Below are positions 1,482 through 61,721 of a DNA stretch of 64,000 nt, piece after piece. The stretch comes from Octopus vulgaris (Eukaryota), in contig OX597828.1 in the NCBI GenBank assembly GCA_951406725.2, positions 31,248,001 to 31,312,000 of the forward strand, in the 5' to 3' direction. The position numbers were made by a program, and so were the translations under genes. How positions within the stretch are numbered: the first letter of the stretch is position 1; every line of letters starts with the position of its first letter. The notes under the pieces were generated by a model, which saw only the letters and a list, made by a program, of their open reading frames with translations, was not told where the DNA came from and ran no database searches.

Positions 1482-1956
1482 ACATCGTGTCTCCTCGTTG
1501 ATATGATTATCCGAATCGATATAAACATATCTCACAATACCTACCAAAAACTGAGCAAGTATAAAGATCTTGAAATAAAAATTAGCAAAACCTGAAGATT
1601 AAACAATACCTGTTGACATAGGTGCCCTGGGAATGATAGCAAAAGAGACTGATTGCTACCTAGTTCAGATACCAAGAAACCCCAAAATGACGGAAATTCA
1701 AAAGATAGTGCTCATGGGAACTGCCCATATCTTACGCAAAATACTATCTATGTAATCTCAAATTTTAAAACAAACATAATTTTCTTATGGTTTCTTAAAC
1801 ATGCTCTAGAACGACAAAACCAAATGTACAAAACCAAATCTATGGTACCCTAGGCATAACGTCAACACGAACTTCCAACTTGTCTCTTGGGGTCTCTAGG
1901 TGGGATTTTGATCCAAGTTGTTCAAACGTAAAGCAAAAGTTAAACATGAAATGTGA

Positions 1957-1960
<4 letters not shown>
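1482..1960 (+). mobile_element. R4/Dong-like RLE retrotransposon 3' end (family B)
   Basis: YQKLSKYKDLEIKISK..TIPVDIGALGMIAK..EIQKIVLMGTAHILRKILSM*, then a ~200 bp 3'UTR different from family A; flanked by (TAA)n on both sides. Confidence 0.8.
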
Positions 1961-1995
<35 letters not shown>

Positions 1996-2010
1996 GAAGA
2001 AGAAGAAGAA

Positions 2011-2076
<66 letters not shown>

Positions 2077-2108
2077 GAAGAAGAAGAAGAAGAAGAATGA
2101 TAATAATA

Positions 2109-2188
<80 letters not shown>

Positions 2189-3577
2189 TCTATTACTGTC
2201 ATTATTATAAAGAGTATCATGGTCATCATCATCATCATCATCATCGTTATATTTATACTTCTTCTTTTATATATACTTAAATTTTTCTTGCTAAATCTTA
2301 TATTGTCGTGTACGTGTTCGTCATTGATACTAAAGTTTCTACTCTATTTAAAATTTAATCTTATACATATAAAATGTAAATATAAATGTAAATTATCTGA
2401 CTATATTGATTATAATTTCATTGTTTTTCAAATTGATTTTCTATGTAGATACTCTGCTTATCAAATTATGTTTGCTTTTATAGACTTATTTTTCTAGTTC
2501 TATCAAACGTTTTCTTTATTAATACTATTAAAAAATTGTTTATGTGGGAATTGTCAATCTACTCTACGAAAAAATGTTTATTATCTAGGTATATTGAATT
2601 ATGACTATCAATAAACAATATAGTATTATTTAGCAATATTATATTGTATATCTTTGTTTTCTTTGTCAATTGTTTAAAGCCATTCTATATTTCTATATTC
2701 TACCGAAGATTGTCATATTTAAATGGCTTAATATTTGTATTTATTAGCGGCTGTAATGAATGAAGTCGATATTTCATAATGACTAAAAGTTTGAGGATGC
2801 ATTCTTCTCTTCAAATAAGACAGTGGAATATAGACATCTATTGTGCGTTTTTGTCAAATGTCTGGGGGATATCAGTGAATGAAACAAAAGACAAAGTTAC
2901 GCAGCTGTCATATTAACGATGTTCTTAGTTTTATGACCTCCAAATGAACATTAGTTATACACAAACGTCAGACATCATTGACCCACAGTGGTATACCATT
3001 CGCTTCGCATCCATCAAATGGAAGTTTCAGTCTTGTATATTATATATATGAGGCCTTACTTTAAGTGTATATAACACATGGAATGATCGATGGATAAAGA
3101 GCCCCGTCTGAACATTGCTCATATTCTGAAACAGCTTTGCTACTTCATTTCTCACGAGCACACTCTGTCTCACTCTTCCTCTCACTCACAGTGTATGTGT
3201 ATGTGGGTGTTGAGGTATGTGTTCAAGCATCTGAGTCTATATGGTTGCATGTGTACATGTATGTATGTAGAATGACATTGTATTCAAGTAGGAAGGAGTA
3301 TCTGGAAAGAAAACACTTCGGACAATAGGTAATGTTATGTAATATATACCCGTTGGACATTGGAAACAACTTTACCAACCAACGACTTTTTCCAGCCAAC
3401 AATTTTTACACAGGTGATTAAAGAATGGTAAACAACATTTTTTTAATTTCGTAAAGAAGTTGTGTTGTACCTATTATCTTATCGGAATTTTCAGTCTAAT
3501 CAACGGAGATGTCTGGACAGGTGTCATATTACAGTCACTCTCCTGACTTGTTCTTTACACAATTAATACATAAATAT

Positions 3578-3803
3578 GAGGCACGTAGCTTAGTGGTTAG
3601 GGTGTCAGCATCATGATCGTAATATTGTGGTTTCAATTTGAGCAAAACACTTCATTTCACGTTGCTCCAGTCCACTCAGCTGGCAAAACTGAGTAACGTT
3701 GCGATGGACTGGCGTCCCGTCCAGCTGGGAAACACATACGCCATAGAAACCGGGAAACCGGGCCCATGAGCCTGGCTAGGCTTTAAAAGGACGCATCTTT
3801 TAT
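3578..3803 (+). mobile_element. tRNA-derived SINE (family 1)
   Basis: A-box TAGCTTAGTGG, degenerate B-box, central TTGAGCAAAACACTTCATTTCACGTTGCTCCAGTCCACTCAGCTG and GCGATGGACTGGCGTCCCGTCCAG motifs typical of SINE middle bodies. Confidence 0.7.
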
Positions 3804-3963
3804 TGGTAAGGAACTTGCTTACCAACCACATGATTCCGGGTTCAGTCCCACTGCGTGGCACCTTGGTCAAGTGTCTTTTTACTATAGCCTCGGGCCGACC
3901 AAAGCCTTGTGAGTAGATTTGGTAGACAGAAACGGAAAGAAGCCCGTCGTATATATATATATG

Positions 3964-4012
<49 letters not shown>

Positions 4013-4215
4013 CTGTGTTTGTCCTCCCAACATCGTTTGACAACCGATGTTGGTGTCTTTACGTCCCCGTATCTTAGCGGTTCGGCAAAAGTGAGCGATA
4101 GAATAAGTACTGGGCTTACAAAGAATAAATCCCGGGGGTCGATTTCCTCGACTAAAGGCGGTACTCCATCATGGCCGCAGTCAAATGGCTGTAACAAATA
4201 AAAGAGAGAGTACAA
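3804..4215 (+). mobile_element. tRNA-derived SINE with internal (TA)/(TG) microsatellite (family 2; octopus OK/OR-type, exact name unverified)
   Basis: GGTTCAGTCCC B-box-like head, CCTTGGGCAAGTGTCTT-like core, internal (TA)n(TG)n, AAAAGAG tail; many copies in the window. Confidence 0.9.
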
Positions 4216-5289: not shown

Positions 5290-6441
<1,152 letters not shown>

Positions 6442-7303: not shown

Positions 7304-7433
7304 AGTGCACTAGTGGATGTATCACAATATCCAACCTCAAAAAACTGAATTACTAGACAGCATCATTACACGGTAACCGGCATAGCTTTATTTGCACACC
7401 CGTAAAGTTACAATTAACGAATTTTAAAATTAT

Positions 7434-7840
7434 AGTGGCTGTGTGGTAAGTAGCTTGTTTACCAACCACATGGTTCCGGGTTCAGTCCCAGTGCGTGGCA
7501 CCTTGGGCAAGTGTCTTCTACTATAGCCTCGGGCCGACCAAAGCCTTGTGAGTGGATTTGGTAGACGGAAACTGAAAGAAGCCCGTCGTATATATGTATA
7601 TATATATATATATGCGTGTGTGTGTTTGTGTGTCTGTGTTTGTTCCCCTTGCATTGCTTGACAACCAATGCTGGTGTGTCTATGTCCCCGTAACTTAGCG
7701 GTTCGGCAAAAGAGACCGATATAATAAGTACTGGGCTTACAAAAGAATAAGTTCCGGGGTCGAGTTGCTCGATTAAAGTCGGTGCTCCAGCATGGCCGGA
7801 GTCAAATGACTGAAACAAGTAAAAGAGAAAAGAGAAAGAG
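7434..7840 (+). mobile_element. SINE family 2 copy
   Basis: Near-full-length match to 3804-4215 and 41894-42308. Confidence 0.92.
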
Positions 7841-11595: not shown

Positions 11596-12016
11596 TTTAC
11601 TCTTTTACTTGCTTCAGTCCTTTGACTGTGGCCATACTGGAGCACCCCCTTTAGTCGTCGAGCAAATCGACTTTAGGACTTATTCTTTGTAAGTCTAGTA
11701 CATATTCTATCGGTATCTTTTGCCGTGCCGCTAAGTTACGGGGACGTAAATACACTAGCATCGATTGTCAAACGATGTTTGGGAGACAAACACAGACACA
11801 CAAACATTTACACAAACACACACACACATACATACATACGCATATAAATTTATATATGACGGGCTTCTTTCAGTTTTCGTCTGCTAAATCCACTCACAAG
11901 GCTTTGGTTGGCCTGAGGCTATAGCAGAAGACACTCGCCCACGGTGTCACGCAGTGGGACTGAAACCGACAGCATCTGGTTCGTAAGCAAACTACTTACC
12001 ACAGAGCCACTCCTAC
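11596..12016 (-). mobile_element. SINE family 2 copy
   Basis: Reverse complement of the family 2 consensus, with internal (CA)n. Confidence 0.9.
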
Positions 12017-19785: not shown

Positions 19786-20072
19786 AAAGGAGTGCCGAGA
19801 TGATCTGTAAAGTGGGCCGAGATAGCATGGTCGAAGCACTTAATTTTGATTTGATCCTGCTACGAAATAGGCGAGACTTCTGGAACTTGATTGAGGAAAG
19901 AAAACCACGAATAACCCGTCTTTTTTTTTTTTGCCTGTCCTTATTATTGATGTTTCTCTTGTCCACCTTTGTATCGTCTATCTGTCCGAATGTTTTAATA
20001 TTCTCTCTCTCTATATATATGTGTTTATGTGTGTGTGCGCGTGTGTGTGCGTGCGTGTGTGCTTATACACAA

Positions 20073-20137
<65 letters not shown>

Positions 20138-20184
20138 TATGTATATATGTATATATGTATATATGTATGTATGGATGGATGTAG

Positions 20185-20390
20185 TTGCGTCTGTGTTTGT
20201 TCCCTACCATCGCTTGACCACCGATGTTGGTCTGTTTCCATCCCCATAAATTTGCGGTTCGGCAAAAGAGACCGACAGGATAAGTACAAGGCTTACAAAA
20301 AATAAAACCTGATTTTGATTTGTTAGACTAAAGGAAGTGCTTCAGCATGACCGCAGTGAAATGACTAAAACAAGTAAAAGAATAAAAAAG
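20185..20390 (+). mobile_element. SINE family 2, 3' half
   Basis: GTCTGTGTTTGTTCCC...GCGGTTCGGCAAAAGAGACCGA...AAACAAGTAAAAGAA after a microsatellite. Confidence 0.8.
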
Positions 20391-21589
20391 AGTGCTAAGA
20401 TGACCATTATTGTGGACCGAGATAGCATTGTCGAGGCTCTTAACTTTGATGTGATCATTCTGCAAGAACAGACTGTTGTAGTGGGTAGCGATTCTAATTT
20501 CGTAATCAGATTAAATAGACATCATTATAGTTTCGTATTCTTAATTTTCTCTCAGAATCGGTTATAATGATTCTGTTTTCCACCCTTTTGGGTTCGATAA
20601 ATAAATGCCAGTTGATCTCTGGTTTCAACGTAATCGATTTAATCCCTGCTCTGGAATTACTGACCTTGTGCTAAAATTTGAAACTAATATGTGCAGGTTT
20701 ATTTTCTGCGTCAGAAATTTATGCCGAGGAGCATAGTGTTATATCATATAGCTGTGTATCAAATAAGGACTTGACGTATTAGGCTTGAAGAGATAACTAA
20801 ATTTCACGCAAAATACACTTCTTTCGAAGTTTTTATAGGGATTTAACGTAAAAATAACTTACCATTGACAGTGAATCGACAATGATATTTATTGCTTGAA
20901 TGCGTTTTATTATAAAATGTAGAAAAAAAATCGACGAAATTTAATTTAATATTGTTTTCGCTCTTCTGAAATTTGAATTTACTGATAGTCTGCACCCCCG
21001 TACACACACGCACACATACACACGCTTATACGTGCATACGCACACGGGCACAGGTGCACGCATAGACACACGCATACACATGCGTATTCGTTCGTATGTA
21101 CATATGTATATTTGCATATATGCACACATGCATATCAGTGTGCGCCCATGTACAGATGCGCACGCACACATGCACGCAAAACCATATGAGCGAGTCTACA
21201 CACCCACATATAGAACTATATATTTGCACAAGCCACCCGTTCCTACCCTCCCCCCCCAACAATCTGACTGACTTCCTAACCGCCATGTGATCTATTTCCT
21301 GTCCTCCACGTGATCAATTTCATGTTTACCATGTGTTATTTTCCAACTAACAGTTACACATATACCAACATCTAACCACGGCACAACATGAAATTTCTCA
21401 ACCAATCGCAGTCCACCTGATGGTAATAAAAATCAATTTCTGTCACCAAATTCAAGATGGCTGACGACTAGCAATACTCTTGAAATACCAAAATACCAAA
21501 ATGTTATCTAAGAAAGTGAGTGAGTGTGCATACGTATGCATACGTTTAAGCTTTTAAAATTCTTCCTATGTTTTTCTGTTGCGATATTC

Positions 21590-22130
21590 ACTGCAATAAC
21601 TCATGGAAGATTCATTTCTGTGCACTGTTTTCAAGAAGAATCTTAATGGAATAGAAAGTTTCAGAGCAAATCTTCTTTGTAAGTTATACAGCAAGGAAAA
21701 TTTGAAAGAAAATTCAAAATTTGCTTTTCGGAATATCGAGTAATTTCGACAGTTTGGGTATGATCAAACATTTCTTGAGAGGGATATATATTGCTTTCTA
21801 CATAAATATCCTCCAAGAAAATGCTAATGGATTTTCCAGTTGTTACGCATATGGAGGCAGAGTTTAAAACATAAATAGACCAAAATTGTTTCTGTTCCAA
21901 ACATACAAATATGACGTAACTGTTTAAGACTATAATGTGTAATGTAGCGTGTAATAATTTTTATCAAATCCATTTCAACTTCATGCTCCACGATCTTAGA
22001 CACTGTCCTCTCACTTCTATTTCAAAAACACAAGGACACGGACTTTATTTCGTGCCGTATATCCAGCTGAAAATGATGTTTCCTGGGGGTAAATAACAGA
22101 CACATTCGTCCCATCATGGGGCTGCCACAT
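21590..22130 (-). mobile_element. Possible decayed hAT (SPIN/GTF2IRD2-like) transposase C-terminus
   Basis: ..QFWS...KSISIFLEDIYVES..ILNFLSNF loosely resembles the hAT dimerisation region FW..A..L.S.F.STY.CE..FS. Confidence 0.3.
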
Positions 22131-22329
22131 AACATTGAGAAAAAGTCATTTATTTATGGTGCTATTACTGTATATCTCTCTTTGAGAGAATTAAAAATAG
22201 TACTTCTATTTCATATATGTGTGCATGAGTGTGCGCGTGTGTGTGTGTATATGTATGTATATATATGGATATATTTTTAACTACATATGTACACAGATAT
22301 ATATGTATGCATATATAACTTTGACATCT

Positions 22330-33045: not shown

Positions 33046-33880
33046 ATGACCCGATTGTCAGCAGCGCAGAGACATCAAGCTTTCGGCCGATTGCAAGCAG
33101 GGGAGCATGCCCTGGTAGTTGCGAAATATTATAATATCAATGTCGGCACCATCTATCACCTGCAATAGCAATGCAACAACACTCGTGCTCGTTGAGGGCG
33201 CCCGGTAAACCACGCCCAGGTAGGACCGCATAATCCACCTGCGGCACCTGTGTGATTACTTCAGACGGGCGGACATGACAACTCGCGAGAACATTGGCAC
33301 TGGGCATTGACTCATCAGCGATATCGACTGATCGCCAACAACCTGCACTTCCGTTGTGCTGCTCGAGGGCATGTCCTCACCACCCACTACTGTCAGGGAC
33401 GCTACACAGTGCGCTACACAGCAGCGATATTGGAGGCATCAACAGTGGAGGTCGATAGTGTTCTATGACGAGAGCCGGTACTACGTTTGCAGCTAGGATG
33501 GGAGAGTGAGGTTGTGGCATAGGAGGGGTAAACGCTACACAGACGTATGTGTCACGAAGAGAGATCCGTGTGGTGGCCAAAGCATCATGGATTGGGGTAC
33601 AATAGGCCTTAATCGGAGAAATGGACCCCATTTGTTCCTAAAAGTTGGTGCAGGCAGATGGAATGGTCTCACAGTGCAGCACAACATCAGAAACATGTGG
33701 TCGGTTCTCAGCCCGGATTTGAACCCAATTGAACACCAGCGGGATGAAATCCAGAGACATCTTAACCAGGTGTTCCGAAGGCCAACAACACCTGTGGAAC
33801 TGGAGGAAGCTTTCCTCGGGGCATGGGTATAGGTGCCAATGGTTTTTGTGAATCGCCTCATACACTCCATATAATCTACG
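33046..33880 (+). mobile_element. Tc1-like transposase pseudogene
   Basis: MTRLSAAQRHQAFGRLQAGE.. HTH start, VFYDESR, GGQSIMDWG and SPDLNPIEH motifs; stops, frameshifts and an internal deletion. Confidence 0.9.
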
Positions 33881-34084
33881 GTGTATGTTTTGAACCGACC
33901 ACATGTTTCTGGTGTTGTGCTGCACTGTGAGACCATTCCATCTGCCTGCACCAACTTTTAGGAACAAATGGGGTCCAATTCTCCGATTAAGGCCTATTGC
34001 ACCCCAATCCATGATGCTTTGGCCACCACACGGATCTCTCTTCGTGACACATACGTCTGTGTAGCGTTTACCCCTCCTATGCCA
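33515..34084. repeat. 193-bp inverted duplication (33515-33707 / 33892-34084)
   Basis: Arms differ at only about 3-4 positions. Confidence 0.95.
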
Positions 34085-34929
34085 TTATTATTTTCCCAAC
34101 CATGCTCTTCGATCTTCTGTGATGTGATATTTTCAGTGTAGGGTTGCGCATTGTCCTGATGGAACATCACTCCTTTTCGATTCACTAAAGTGGGTCTTTT
34201 TCTTCAAAGTTTGGTTCAAACTCTCTAATTGCTGAGAGTAGACTTGAGTATTGATTGTTACATTAGGTGATAACAATTCAAAATGAATTATTCCTTTGCA
34301 ATCCCACTAGATAGAGAGAAGAACCTTTTTCCTATGATGTTCCTTTTTCGGTTGTGGTTGAGCTTTTAAACTTTTACCAAGCCACTGTTTACGACGTTTA
34401 ACATTTCGATAGAAGATCCATATCTCGTTATCAGTTACAAGTCTATCCAAAAAGGGTGAAATGAGTTCGCGAGAATGGAGAGAAGAGCAGATGTCAACTC
34501 GAGACTTGCGGTTGCTTTCGGACAATATATGAGGTACCCATTTTCTAAGTTGTTGAAAATGACAATGAACAGTTGTATTGTTTGAACTCAGTTTTATTGC
34601 CAATTCTTCAACTGATAAAGCAGGATTCTCTTTAGGTAATGCCTCAAAGAGCATATCATCAAACTCAACTGGACGTCCTGTTCGATCTTCATCTTCAAGG
34701 CTGAAATTTCCAATTCTGGATTTTGCAAACCATCTTCTGTAAGCTCTTTCATTCAAGCATTCTCTCCCATAAACTGATTCAGTTCGGCTGCAGAGTTTCC
34801 TTTTTTCTAATCATAAAGCATTATATGCCTCAAATGTTCTTTGGATACTTCCATGTTAGAAAGGGTTTTATTCAAAGTAATTTGAATTCTATTATCGTGT
34901 AAAATAATAATTAGTTTGAATGTACATAG

Positions 34930-35294
<365 letters not shown>

Positions 35295-35299
35295 AGTAT

Positions 35300-35351
35300 T
35301 GGTTAAGAGTGTGGGCTAATAACTCCCAGATTCTGAGTTCGATTCCAGGGA

Positions 35352-35445
<94 letters not shown>

Positions 35446-35612
35446 TAATAATAATAATAACAATAACAACAACAACAACAGCATCGAAAAACTCAGGTTC
35501 GAAAATTTCCCCAAGATACCTGATGAAGCCTGGAGGGTATGTCAGCCGAAACGTTGTGATAACAAACAAGATGAGGACAAATATCCGTCAATTGTAAATA
35601 ATGTAAATAATG
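35300..35612 (+). mobile_element. Hammerhead-SINE copy, head-to-head with the previous copy
   Basis: TGGTTAAGAGT..GAGTTCGATTCC head, (TAA)n(CAA)n, tail. Confidence 0.85.
35515..35560 (+). ncRNA. Minimal type-I hammerhead ribozyme motif
   Basis: GATAC-CTGATGA-AGCCTG gagggtatgt CAGCC-GAAA-CG-TT-GTGAT; consensus across copies gives stem I GACAC/GTGTT, stem II GGCTG/CAGCC, palindromic ACGT stem III. Confidence 0.75.
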
Positions 35613-36282
35613 TTTAAATGTACACAAATGCATAAACATAATTTTTAATTCCATTAGACTTTCCAAAATATTATTAAATTTCATTCAATTTTAAAATATG
35701 TAAGATCGGACAGAACTTATTGGATGACCTGATAAGAAGAAAGAACAACCAAACGCAAAATGAAGAGTCCTCCATCGATGAAAACAATGTTTCACGAGTA
35801 CAGACTTAAAATATCATTCAGTTGTATTCATAGTCGTTCACTCAGTAATATTTGCAGAAAATCTAATTTTCCTTCCATCCTAAGAGATATATTGCCAATC
35901 GAAATAGGGAATATACAAATATAAGCAAACAAAACAAGAATGAACCAGCTTAATTTGCAGAAATGTAAGATACACCCAAGTACAACGCATACAAATCATA
36001 TATACTGAATACAAACTGATTACAAGTTCAACAAAAGTCAGTAATGTTGAATAAGTGACAGAAGAGGCATATTCAGTAAACACTGTTCGTCAACAAACTA
36101 AGTAACATAATGAAGTTCAATGCCGTCAATATTAGAGCCCACGACGGGTCTTAATTAATAAGGGCAATGAGCTACTAATTAATTGCAGACTCTGTTTGAT
36201 TCAGAGTAATCTGCACATTCGTAACATCATTCCCCACACATTATCCCCACACTAACCTTTGTATCCAGGAAAGTATTTACTA

Positions 36283-40480: not shown

Positions 40481-40503
40481 CGAAACTCATAATGATGATA
40501 ATA

Positions 40504-40906
<403 letters not shown>

Positions 40907-41893: not shown

Positions 41894-42308
41894 GGCGCAG
41901 GAGTGGCTGTGTGGTAAGTAGCTTGCTAACCAACCACATGGTTCCGGGTTCAGTCCCACTGCGTGGCATCTTGGGCAAGTGTCTTCTGCTATAGCCCCGG
42001 GCCGACCAATGCCTTGTGAGTGGATTTGGTAGACGGAAACTGAAAGAAGCCCGTCGTATATATGTATATATATATGTGTGTGTGTGTGCATGTTTGTGTG
42101 TCTGTGTTTGTCCCCCTAGCATTGCTTTACAACCGATGCTGGTGTGTTTACGTCCCCGTCACTTAGCGGTTCGGCAAAAGAGACCGATATAATAAGTACT
42201 GGGCTTCCAAAGAATAAGTCCCGGGGTCGATTTGCTCGACTAAAGGCGGTGCTCCAGCAAGGCCGCAGTCAACTGACTGAAACAAGTAAAAGAGTAAAGA
42301 GTAAGAGT
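41894..42308 (+). mobile_element. SINE family 2, full-length copy
   Basis: GGCGCAGGAGTGGCTGTGTGGTAAG head through AAAAGAGT-repeat tail. Confidence 0.93.
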
Positions 42309-45710: not shown

Positions 45711-45941
45711 TTCCTTTTCTTTTATTCTTTTAACTGTTTCATTCATTTGACTGCGGCCATGCTGGAGTACCGTCTTTAGTCGAACAAATCGATCCACGGA
45801 CTTCTTCTTTATAAGCCTATTACTTATTCTATTGGTCTCATTTGTCGAACCGCAAGGTTACTCGGACGGAAGCGCACCAGCATCGGGTGTCAAGCGATGG
45901 TGCGAGGACAAACAGAGACAAGAAGCACACACACACATACG

Positions 45942-52273: not shown

Positions 52274-52356
52274 ATATATATCTATCTATCTATCTATCTA
52301 TCTATCCATCTATCTATTTATCTATCTATCTATCTATCAATATATATATAATACAT

Positions 52357-52409
52357 TTCTATATTTAAAAGATGAGGAATTGTCCTCATCTTGTTTATTG
52401 TTAACACAA

Positions 52410-52445
<36 letters not shown>

Positions 52446-52499
52446 CAACAACAACAACAACAACAACAATAATAATAAAAATAATAATAATAATAATAA

Positions 52500-52583
<84 letters not shown>

Positions 52584-52781
52584 CATAATTAAAAAATAAT
52601 AATAACAACAACATCGAAAAATGCCTTACGAATGAGAATGCAGGTTCGAAATTACCCCCAAGACACCTTATGAGTGCTGTAGGGTATATCAGCCGAAACG
52701 TTAACACTAAACAAGATGAGGACAAATATCCGTCAAATGTAAATAGTGTAAACAATGTAAATAATGTAAATAATGTAAATA

Positions 52782-52786
<5 letters not shown>
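52357..52786 (+). mobile_element. Hammerhead-SINE copy preceded by inverted tail piece
   Basis: Minus tail 52357-52410, then CTGAATAAT.. microsatellite and tail with HHR-like 52662-52702; flanked by (TA)n. Confidence 0.85.
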
Positions 52787-52988: not shown

Positions 52989-53023
52989 ATTTAACGTTTC
53001 GAGCGGAGCTCTTCGTCAGGAAC
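52989..53023 (-). ncRNA. Minimal hammerhead motif in a pLTR-like fragment (52880-53090)
   Basis: Minus strand GTTC-CTGACGA-AGAGC tcc GCTC-GAAA-CG-TT-AAAT; intact core, stem II and palindromic ACGT. Confidence 0.65.
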
Positions 53024-53855: not shown

Positions 53856-54783
53856 TGTATGTATGTATGTATGTATGTATGTGTGTATATGTGTGTATGC
53901 ATGTATATATATACGTATGTGTGTATATATGTATGTATGTATGAATGTATGTATGTGTATATGTAAATAGTAAATAGTCTTTCTCCGATAATGCTAAACG
54001 ACTTAACAGCGCAGCGGAAATAACTGGAAAAAAAACAAAGCAAAACATATTTCTCAGAAAAATAAAACCAAGTCAATAATAAATGTAAGTATCTATTGCA
54101 AAATATGATCATGTTTTGTATTATTTATGCATAATAAAATGTAATTTTATAGATTATATAATCAGGAGTAACTTAATGAACACCGCCTTCTGAAATGAAA
54201 CTAAGTTGATCATAAAATGCTGGAAAGGCAAATGATTGTACATAAGCATGCATATGTCTGTGCAATCGGGTGTGTGTTTCTGCCCATAAGATCTAGAGAC
54301 GTAGATATCCATATACATAGACGCTTATATAGAAGTGTGGGGGGGGAGGTGCACGTGTTTGCGTTTGTGTGTGGTTATGCTTATTACTTTCAACTATATA
54401 GGTGTACGTGTCTGAATATGATGGGTAGGTGTGAAGTGTTTACATTAATGTATCTTTGCAAGTAATTAATTCAAATCGGAGGTAGAAACTGAGAGCTTCA
54501 AGAAAAGTGTGAGTGAGTGAGAGATTAATTGCAGAATAAAAGATGTTAAGTGCCGACCTTTACTTTATCCTTATACACCTACATTTAATCAGATATTTTC
54601 TATCTTATATTAAATCTGGATCTATTACAATTAGTGTATTCACCTACACTTCAACATATAAGGACATACGCACCTATATGTATATATAACGGGAGAGTTT
54701 ACGAAAAAAAAAGCAAAAGACGAAGGCAGGTGGTGTACAAAACAAACAGATGTATTAGAATAACGCTCAGGAATAGAAAAAGA

Positions 54784-54819
54784 CTTTTACGTTTCGAGCC
54801 TACGCTCTTCTACAGAAAG
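54784..54819 (-). ncRNA. Hammerhead-like variant in an inverted pLTR-like fragment (54695-54850)
   Basis: Minus strand CTTT-CTGTAGA-AGAGC gtag GCTC-GAAA-CG-TA-AAAG; perfect stems I and II, A6 substituted. Confidence 0.55.
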
Positions 54820-57848: not shown

Positions 57849-58366
<518 letters not shown>

Positions 58367-58923
58367 ATATATACATATATACATAGCAATAATAAATCTC
58401 TGAACGAGATGTAAACAGTAACCGCTCGACAACGTAAAGTATAATAGCCATATCAATATGGCTAACCATATATATATATATATATATATATATGCGCACA
58501 TGTATGTATGTATATATATGTATGTATAGAAAATGCATCTTCTGTCATTTTAATGCCCACTACGATCCGCAAGCAACTGGACATTTCTGACGACGGTAAC
58601 TCGAAACGTTCAGTGACATCTTGTGCAAATCGTCTTTGTTCTGGAAGTTTTTCAATTGCGAGAGATATTTGTTTCTTGAAAATGTTGAGATCGTTTCTCG
58701 CGTATCTGATATCGTGAAAACAGTAACTGCGGAATATAATTGAGGAAATAATTGGTAAGATATAAGATTTGTTTATATTGTACTTATATAACACGAACAA
58801 AAAAGGTTAAACAAATCATGGTAAACAAAAATGACAATGTGCAAAGAAGACATTCTCTATGTAGACAACTGTAGATATTATTGCGTATTATGGTTGAGTG
58901 ATCAATATTTTTTTAAAGTGATG

Positions 58924-61537: not shown

Positions 61538-61721
61538 CATTATTTACATTACCTTAGGAATGAGAATCCAGGTTCGAAATTTCCGCAAGTCACCTGAAAA
61601 AGGCTGGAGCGTATATCAGCCGAAAATTTGTGGTAACAACAAAGACGATGAGGGCAAATATCCGTCGAATGTAAATAATGTAACTAATGTACAAAATTCC
61701 TCATCTCTTAAATATAGAAGT
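61538..61721 (+). mobile_element. Hammerhead-SINE tail with short inverted piece
   Basis: CATTATTTACATT (inverted), then ACCTTAGGAATGAGAATCCAGGTTCGAAATTT..CTGAAAAAGGCTG..CAGCCGAAAA..CCTCATCTCTTAAATATAGAAG. Confidence 0.8.

Follow-up and report, generated by a model that had tools for sequence, protein, structure and literature searches.

Penelope-like elements (PLEs) carry a minimal kind of type I hammerhead ribozyme, recognizable by an extra base after A9, a G10.1-C11.1 pair, a palindromic 15.2/16.2 position and a helix II that is long where helix I is short, for which no activity was seen in monomers and low activity in dimers (Cervera and de la Pena 2014, PMC4209133). In the one PLE tested together with its protein, that of Anolis, the hammerhead cut only upon addition of the protein and was dispensable for insertion, both DNA strands were nicked at ATT, and reverse transcription started at two internal sites located 111–118 nt into an open reading frame (ORF) whose first codons lie at stem II (Frangieh et al. 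2024, PMC11167929). PLE insertions have an inverted 5'-truncated partner, a tail of 30–40 bp on one end and sometimes a target-site duplication (TSD), and the pseudo-long terminal repeat (pseudo-LTR) mobilises other sequence in trans (Craig et al. 2021; Arkhipova et al. 2013, PMC3846280). Short interspersed elements (SINEs) are described as dependent on long interspersed elements (LINEs), and all short elements known to depend on PLEs lack a head derived from a small RNA. Here, we describe a repeat family found in a 64,000-nt stretch of the Octopus vulgaris genome (assembly GCA_951406725.2, contig OX597828.1, positions 31,248,001 to 31,312,000 of the forward strand; hereafter the window), which is AT-rich animal DNA dense in microsatellites. 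With a probability that we estimate at about 0.78, this family is a SINE composed of a tRNA-like RNA polymerase III (Pol III) head, an (AAT/AAC/AAG)n microsatellite and the 3' end of a Penelope/Poseidon-type PLE, mobilised by PLE machinery and carrying an inherited hammerhead. The motif itself, the composite structure in the window, the homology to a PLE ORF start and the paired short and long ends are direct observations; copying by a PLE enzyme rather than by the usual LINE partner is what the whole suggests.

Several known systems resemble this family in part. The Schistosoma repeats Sm-alpha and Sj-alpha (PMC6765202) also combine, within a single short repeat, a Pol III promoter and a type I hammerhead downstream of it, but that hammerhead is canonical and active, sits in head-to-tail tandems and releases the units by cleavage, and the accessible text names no PLE partner, whereas the octopus motif is minimal, its units are inverted and its tail can be traced to a PLE ORF start. 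Non-LTR retrozymes (PMC7229834; bioRxiv 10.64898/2026.07.22.740005) and the Chlamys element MRC1 (Craig et al. 2021) are likewise short, non-coding and akin to PLE ends, and are presumed to rely on PLE proteins; by contrast, the retrozymes are tandem repeats of 170–400 nt that make circular RNAs, and these sources, as far as accessible, describe no tRNA-derived head for either group. The Octopus tRNA-derived SINEs OK, OR1 and OR2 and the ~900 unclassified SINE families reported in O. vulgaris (PMC13282606) share with ours the tRNA-like head, the genus and a very high copy number, and the accessible octopus SINE literature mentions neither a hammerhead nor a PLE partner. SINEs make up 11.6% of the O. 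vulgaris genome and are mostly unclassified. Our search of the full-text literature, including octopus, squid and mollusc repeat papers but with most subscription papers outside its scope, retrieved no tRNA-headed SINE with a PLE-derived tail or partner and no octopus report of the motif. The family may already be catalogued in Repbase, Dfam or SINEBase, or under the names OK, OR1 or OR2. The hammerhead alone is a further member of a family known since 2014; what matters is the pairing of a tRNA head with a PLE tail, more than the ribozyme.

The full unit measures 320–380 nt, with a tRNA-like head of ~70 nt, the (AAT/AAC/AAG)n array and a tail of ~165 nt. BLAST within the window retrieved seven tails and two stubs, which we name as copies A to G and their joined stubs (window coordinates):

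35295..35353, + strand: copy A, tRNA-like head; B box present, 5' end lost at the inversion junction
35354..35479, + strand: copy A, (AAT)n(AAC)n middle
35480..35611, + strand: copy A, PLE-derived tail, short arm without the 3' extension
35515..35560, + strand: copy A, minimal type I hammerhead with an intact core and mutations in both stem I and stem II; cleavage predicted after 35555
35225..35294, - strand: copy B, tRNA-like head, head-to-head with copy A
35096..35224, - strand: copy B, (AAT)n(AAG)n middle
34931..35095, - strand: copy B, tail, long arm with the 3' extension
35002-35047, - strand: copy B, hammerhead; 3 nt of the palindrome and triplet lost
34914..34930, + strand: probable target-site duplication of the A/B unit, left copy; 12/13 identical to the right copy (14/17 if extended)
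35612..35628, + strand: probable target-site duplication of the A/B unit, right copy; resembles the element's own 9-nt end repeat
40503..40851, - strand: copy C, half head, microsatellite and short-arm tail
40558-40603, - strand: copy C, hammerhead; U4 and G10.2 mutated
40850..40905, + strand: inverted long-arm stub joined to copy C
52410..52785, + strand: copy D, 4-5 nt head remnant, microsatellite and short-arm tail
52352..52410, - strand: inverted long-arm stub joined to copy D; starts within 1-3 nt of the predicted cut site
57850..58230, - strand: copy E, full head, microsatellite and short-arm tail
58243..58367, + strand: copy F, inverted long arm joined to copy E; begins at hammerhead stem I
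61538..61718, + strand: copy G, long arm with 5' truncation; an inverted short-arm stub of 13 nt lies before it

Five arms (A–E) reach past the microsatellite, three of them with a full or nearly full head, one with half a head and one with a remnant; in 5/5 the head has the same orientation and the tail starts at the same junction. Pol III boxes are recognizable in several heads (A and B boxes in the head at 5509, the B box in copies A and B, the A box in copy E), and a sense-strand run of four T is absent in 6/7 copies, as against 7.2 such runs per kb across the window, which is compatible with Pol III transcription. No ORF for a reverse transcriptase (RT) or GIY-YIG endonuclease was found within the SINE elements, which are therefore non-autonomous and not themselves PLEs. 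To look beyond the window, contigs from four public runs (organism labels A, B, E and A) were mapped on copy C (40488-40652, 80% likeness), with 21,797, 19,862, 22,251 and 2,693 contigs placed, respectively. The first three are DNA runs; run X21 is of presumed RNA origin only and, as it consists of contigs, it is uninformative on expression or RNA ends. The variant table comprises 30 listed rows, and all statements on variants in the runs hold among these. The family is short, non-coding, dispersed and of high copy number (seven tails in 64 kb; 19,862–22,251 contigs per DNA run), and the summed depth in the runs, which is not a copy number, reaches up to millions, as against about 40–60 for single contigs. 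This hints at a SINE copy number of the order of 100,000. The loose ends at the 5' edge of the tail in the runs are microsatellite, with 118–152 contigs per place in each DNA run. A second B-box-like word also occurs in the tail directly upstream of the hammerhead, at 35490-35510 (+) and at the equivalent place in other copies.

The first-pass annotation of this DNA had recognized a minimal hammerhead in the SINE tail at 35515-35560, and its letters are indeed as described: the core CUGAUGA (35520-35526), the extra A (35527), GAAA (35548-35551), CG (35552-35553) and the cleavage triplet GUU ending at 35555. In copy A, stem II (GCCUG/CAGCC) has a C-C at its second pair and counts as 1 bp by our descriptor, stem I (GAUAC/GUGAU) has 3 bp, and the predicted fold is not a hammerhead (z 0.32). 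The annotation had made its claim for the consensus, most copies being mutated, and both points were borne out. None of the seven window copies (0/7) passes as an intact hammerhead, with 4–11 differences over 46 columns, partly inflated by gap placement, whereas their majority passes the full descriptor (stem I of 4 bp, stem II of 6 bp, extra nucleotide). This descriptor represents the full minimal hammerhead and was drawn from the published consensus, after the motif had already been seen; none of 20,000 dinucleotide shuffles of the seven-copy majority passed it, and 200 shuffled windows yielded 0 matches. Stems I and II form in the majority monomer with pair probabilities of 0.92–1.0, unlike in copy A. 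The majorities in the runs give the same letters, restoring the consensus where copy C departs from it (U4 in 93–98%, the stem I C in 90–97% and G10.2 in 87–97% of summed depth); the drop in depth over the core is explained by copy C's own mutations, which lower matching.

Compared with published PLE hammerheads (PMC4209133), the octopus motif has the same CUGANGA core with an extra nucleotide, a helix II of 5–6 bp, a helix I of 4–5 bp and a loopless palindrome. By our own count, 15/56 rows of its Fig. S3 share the CGUU ending, an NUH triplet with H = U. The core CUGANGA, GAAA and the NUH triplet are intact in copy A and in the family majority, both of which also have the extra nucleotide between A9 and 10.1 and the G10.1-C11.1 pair; the palindromic 15.2/16.2 is CG in the majority, with no loop III and with CpG decay of 7–17% at each base. 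The differences are taxonomic and structural: that study has no cephalopod among its 40 aligned species, and the octopus motif lies in a tRNA-headed non-autonomous element instead of a PLE or a bare stub. Taken at the level of sequence, this likeness supports an assignment to the minimal type I hammerheads of the PLE kind, and descent of the family motif from a true PLE hammerhead seems to us very probable. Rfam searches returned no family at gathering score in the window and only chance matches at E up to 10, with no hammerhead family at that limit in 34900-35700; Rfam contains no model suiting the loopless form, which argues against reading the missing match as chance resemblance. As a separate observation, a second, unrelated repeat contains a minimal-hammerhead core at 52993-53019 (-), with N7 = C, an extra A, a 4-bp stem II, a palindromic CG and GUU, and a stem I that fails to form in this copy; a degenerate relative lies at 54763-54818 (-).

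The tail holds one open frame, with 50 codons open in copy C, that matches an O. bimaculoides UniRef entry (P0002, 76%) and the start of an O. sinensis gene model (P0062, 78%), which marks the family as an Octopus repeat. Protein searches with this frame yielded 95 matches, 51 in an exhaustive search and 44 in a profile search for longer proteins, most of which are spurious gene calls over the SINE family or a sister family; a single-sequence search for longer proteins found none. In 4/95 matches (P0055, P0059, P0078, P0086) the frame of the sister family continues into a PLE N-terminus, and a search with residues 44–296 of P0086 returned three proteins, including P0099. This protein of 847 aa has an RVT_1 domain (E 5.7e-11), a GIY-YIG look-alike at its C-terminus (0.96, 212/256 features; PF01541 on 15–24% of members) and the motifs KGLNF, DKG and YVDD, which are marks of PLEs; RT followed by GIY-YIG is the domain order of Penelope/Poseidon-type PLEs. 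DKG is named as a PLE motif by Craig et al. (2021). A profile of 16 family-1 translations (16/29 alignment rows) matched residues 15–48 of P0099 with 22.7 bits (E 3.5e-9, for one comparison), a score reached by 0/2000 shuffles of the P0099 N-terminus; the pairwise E is 6e-4. Because the frame matches the P0099 N-terminus and the long end of the tail falls directly before the next conserved ORF motif, we read the tail as the start of a PLE ORF together with its hammerhead, the part with which PLE insertions end on their 3' side, putatively a pseudo-LTR part overlapping the ORF start, with homology at the protein level. P0099 itself is a relative and no proven partner; a structure search with it gave weak RT matches only. 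DNA pattern scans of viral contigs and GTDB genomes for the motif yielded nothing, and a related-locus search of viral contigs found no relative.

Some of the protein matches deserve a separate mention. In the O. sinensis LOC115224785 models (P0062, P0105, P0107), isoform X2 of a cysteine-rich, TNF-receptor-like gene opens with the tail frame, possibly through exonisation or as a gene-model artefact. The sister family contains head-to-tail repeats of a hammerhead unit of ~41 codons (P0054-P0057, P0003, P0008, P0014) and ends at the same short/long pair of points (38 long, 20 short or other), which makes it a better candidate for dimer cleavage in cis. Three other matches were discarded: P0035 (leucine-rich-repeat-like by eye) and P0034 were taken as spurious low-complexity matches, and the sole metagenome match (L001) lacks the motif and is due to chance.

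The insertion architecture is also that of PLEs. All copies in the window belong to head-to-head units, and the extension is found on one arm only in 4/4 clear inverted pairs (A/B, C, D, E/F). In the first pair it is B that carries the extension, A being the short arm; C, D and E end short as well, and an inverted long arm adjoins each of them. Copy G fits the short/long pattern via its 13-nt inverted stub. The extension measures 23 nt from the last 9-nt end repeat or 32 nt from the preceding one, and the long end lies 104, 110 and 119 nt from stem II in B, F and G, respectively, as against RT starts at 111–118 nt in the Anolis PLE. In A/B, C, D and E/F the point of inversion is within the head or ahead of it, so that the copied unit included both the head and the microsatellite. 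A mariner element (Pfam Transposase_1; 34307-34860 (-) and 35612-35734 (-)) is split in its 5' region by the A/B unit, whose two flanks share a word of 13 nt with one mismatch (17 nt with three); among random flank pairs, a word as long was shared by 7 of at most 2000. This is probably a TSD, and it would enclose both heads. A clustering of junctions at the hammerhead cut site is limited to a few cases (the D stub within 3 nt, F at stem I). The same traits characterize the Anolis carolinensis Poseidon element PAc (PMC11167929) and the Adineta vaga Penelope (PMC3846280): a hammerhead at the ORF start, roughly 110 nt between stem II and the element's end, a choice of two end points with an optional extension, an inverted 5'-truncated partner, an occasional TSD, an AT-rich target and a pseudo-LTR that mobilises other sequence in trans. 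However, those elements are autonomous or one-off captures with the promoter in the pseudo-LTR, whereas the octopus element forms a fixed family of short repeats in high copy number, each built on a tRNA-type head and lacking an ORF.

The 3' extension can also pair with an upstream purine-rich stretch, closing an end hairpin at 61640-61705 (+) and 52360-52392 (-). This hairpin forms in copy G and in the stub joined to D, where an internal deletion leaves it perfect, and not in the mutated copies B and F. It is a candidate for the stem-loop at which reverse transcription begins.

We propose that the PLE end of the unit is a part of the pseudo-LTR that would overlap the first ~50 codons of the PLE ORF and hold the minimal hammerhead. 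Pol III would transcribe the unit, as its A and B boxes and the missing sense T4 run suggest, and a PLE RT-GIY-YIG protein would bind the tail in trans, as its homology implies. This protein would nick both strands of AT-rich DNA and prime reverse transcription at two internal sites of the tail, yielding head-to-head units with a short and a long arm, an architecture that is seen here and a chemistry that would be that of the Anolis PLE. The hammerhead would be an inherited cargo, possibly capable of a weak cut, for which it would probably need the assistance of a protein or a complex of two RNAs. Head-bearing copies would derive from uncut RNA, because cleavage at GUU leaves the head and the priming end on different fragments, and the genomic copies would afterwards decay without visible selection. 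The first-pass annotation was correct on the motif in the SINE tail, and the mobilisation of the SINE by a PLE is a larger step that it did not take. Going further, and leaning only slightly to this side, we may be dealing with a major SINE family of possibly ~100,000 copies driven by a PLE, in which the hammerhead of source copies is maybe selected as a folded site bound or chaperoned by the PLE protein and may cut part of the RNA in protein-assisted two-RNA complexes, limiting the spread of the SINE itself.

If true, PLEs would be a new partner class for SINEs, and this could explain part of the octopus-specific SINE expansion. The 165-nt tail would define a minimal cis signal for PLE mobilisation in trans, and tens of thousands of insertions would yield statistics on end points, inversion junctions and target sites. 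As the GUU cut destroys the SINE head, the family is also a natural test of why PLE hammerheads are kept.

A number of observations weigh against a PLE-mobilised composite SINE. ARAGORN finds no tRNA cloverleaf in the heads, and the linkage of head and tail is seen in the window only, the run contigs showing the microsatellite and not the head. Two units with microsatellite are tail-less, one with a full head (5509-5580) and one with an 8-nt head remnant before 1961. On the side of the partner, the match to P0099 spans 34 residues only, with compositional bias (7.1 bits), and the protein searches, one of them exhaustive, retrieved relatives only and no autonomous PLE with the exact tail. As for insertion, the extension of 23–32 nt is at the low end of the published 30–40, the right TSD copy resembles the end repeat of the element itself, and at the other four units the flanks are of low complexity, which leaves any TSD ambiguous. 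In the ribozyme, conservation of the core shows no excess (p 0.56 in the window, p 0.41 among the 30 variant rows listed in the runs), and the change of a stem II pair between the SINE and sister families, considered below, could arise by two CpG decays. Finally, (AAT)n and (AAC)n arrays are preferred targets of PLEs (Arkhipova et al. 2013, PMC3846280), a preference that bears directly on the strongest of the alternatives.

This alternative, to which we give a small though real share of probability, is that no composite family exists and that PLE-end stubs insert repeatedly into the (AAT)n of an ordinary tRNA-headed SINE. The PLE endonuclease prefers ATT (PMC11167929), N-rich repeats make attractive targets (PMC3846280), and the tail-less units at 5509-5830 (+) and 1950-2190 (+) are what would be expected of the uninterrupted SINE; they could represent either a tail-less parent SINE or loss of the tail, and the first of them belongs to a palindromic element, being located in one of its arms (5798-5977 and 5981-6160). 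Yet the start and the orientation of the tail are fixed in 5/5 arms (A–E), unlike in PLE stubs, whose 5' truncation is variable. The units are inverted at points within the head or ahead of it, and both heads of A/B fall between the two copies of its TSD. Moreover, AAT-type arrays of other repeats in the window (at 143, 498, 1366 and 39529) have no tail attached.

A less probable alternative, which we regard as unlikely, gives the hammerhead a working role in the SINE cycle, as the first-pass annotation implies: two RNAs or tandem copies would form a double hammerhead, cut, and give unit-length or circular RNAs for copying, as in non-LTR retrozymes or the Schistosoma SINE. The majority does keep all core letters, with pair probabilities above 0.9 in stems I and II, and variation falls on N7 and loop II. 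The sister family, moreover, has head-to-tail hammerhead repeats (P0054-P0057), one inverted stub starts no more than 3 nt from the cut site while a second one begins at stem I, and several of the 15 joints listed (of 53) fall 1–11 nt 3' of the cut site. These joints are, however, single contigs, several with intervening letters. Head-to-tail tandem units of the SINE family are absent from the window, and the pairs lie on opposite strands, so that copies A and B, for instance, cannot share one transcript. Cleavage would also part the head from the end that primes, the minimal hammerheads studied so far in print lacked monomer activity and had low dimer activity (PMC4209133), and cleavage was unneeded for Anolis insertion (PMC11167929).

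The checks for selection proposed in the first-pass annotation gave no signal in the seven copies. Covariation in the seven copies shows no excess over shuffles (217/500 as high), as expected of dead copies, and the core differs in 10/90 cells as against 46/505 in the flanks of the window copies (p 0.56). Decay at CpG changes G12 to A in 3–11% and C11.1 to U in 6–15% in the runs, and therefore many copies must be dead. The only non-CpG site in C3-A9 that varies by at least 3% among the variants listed is the free position N7 (U to A, 12–18%), and in the sister family, as judged from translations, N7 is A and a C-G pair replaces U-A in stem II. A subfamily with a palindrome-preserving change of CG to UA at 15.2/16.2, suggested by matched frequencies, was rejected, as the Tyr codon is found in 0/47 translated motif matches; His (10) and Cys (5) represent single CpG decays. 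Of the annotation's proposal of a PLE-associated, dimer-cleaving hammerhead, the PLE type is upheld by the published consensus and the tail homology, while the dimer is not favoured in silico: in ViennaRNA, whose energy model leaves out the tertiary core, both two monomers (2 x -11.3 kcal/mol) and an alternative duplex (-26.6) exceed the double hammerhead (-18.1) in stability. Dimer cleavage by the family hammerhead is plausible from its kinship, and the odds seem even that the family-majority RNA would cut detectably as a dimer or with protein.

Still more improbable is a SINE mobilised by a LINE, in which a PLE piece once acquired would be a passenger and the hammerhead and tail would be idle in copying. 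Octopus does possess many RTE, CR1 and Dong-R4 LINEs, and SINE modules are described to shuffle between partners in molluscs, but the element ends exactly at PLE insertion ends with their short/long pair, no LINE-like tail exists beyond the PLE part, which matches a PLE ORF start rather than a LINE partner, and the 3' ends face outward on both sides in every unit, an arrangement described as not observed for target-primed reverse transcription of non-LTR elements (Craig et al. 2021). That the motif is a chance resemblance, as the missing Rfam match and the bare core pattern (three occurrences in the window versus 1.4 expected) might suggest, can be set aside as exceedingly improbable given the 0/20,000 shuffles that pass the descriptor, the lack of a fitting loopless model in Rfam and the position at a PLE ORF start, a known hammerhead site.

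Other repeats of the window lie close to this family or resemble it. The 3' part of the mariner element that hosts the A/B unit is in turn interrupted by a fragment of a fold-back transposon (33515-34084). In addition, another abundant tRNA-headed SINE family occurs at 3801-4130, 7430-7640, 11657-12014, 41899-42300 and 45720-45920, with a weak likeness to the family described here that is confined to the head.
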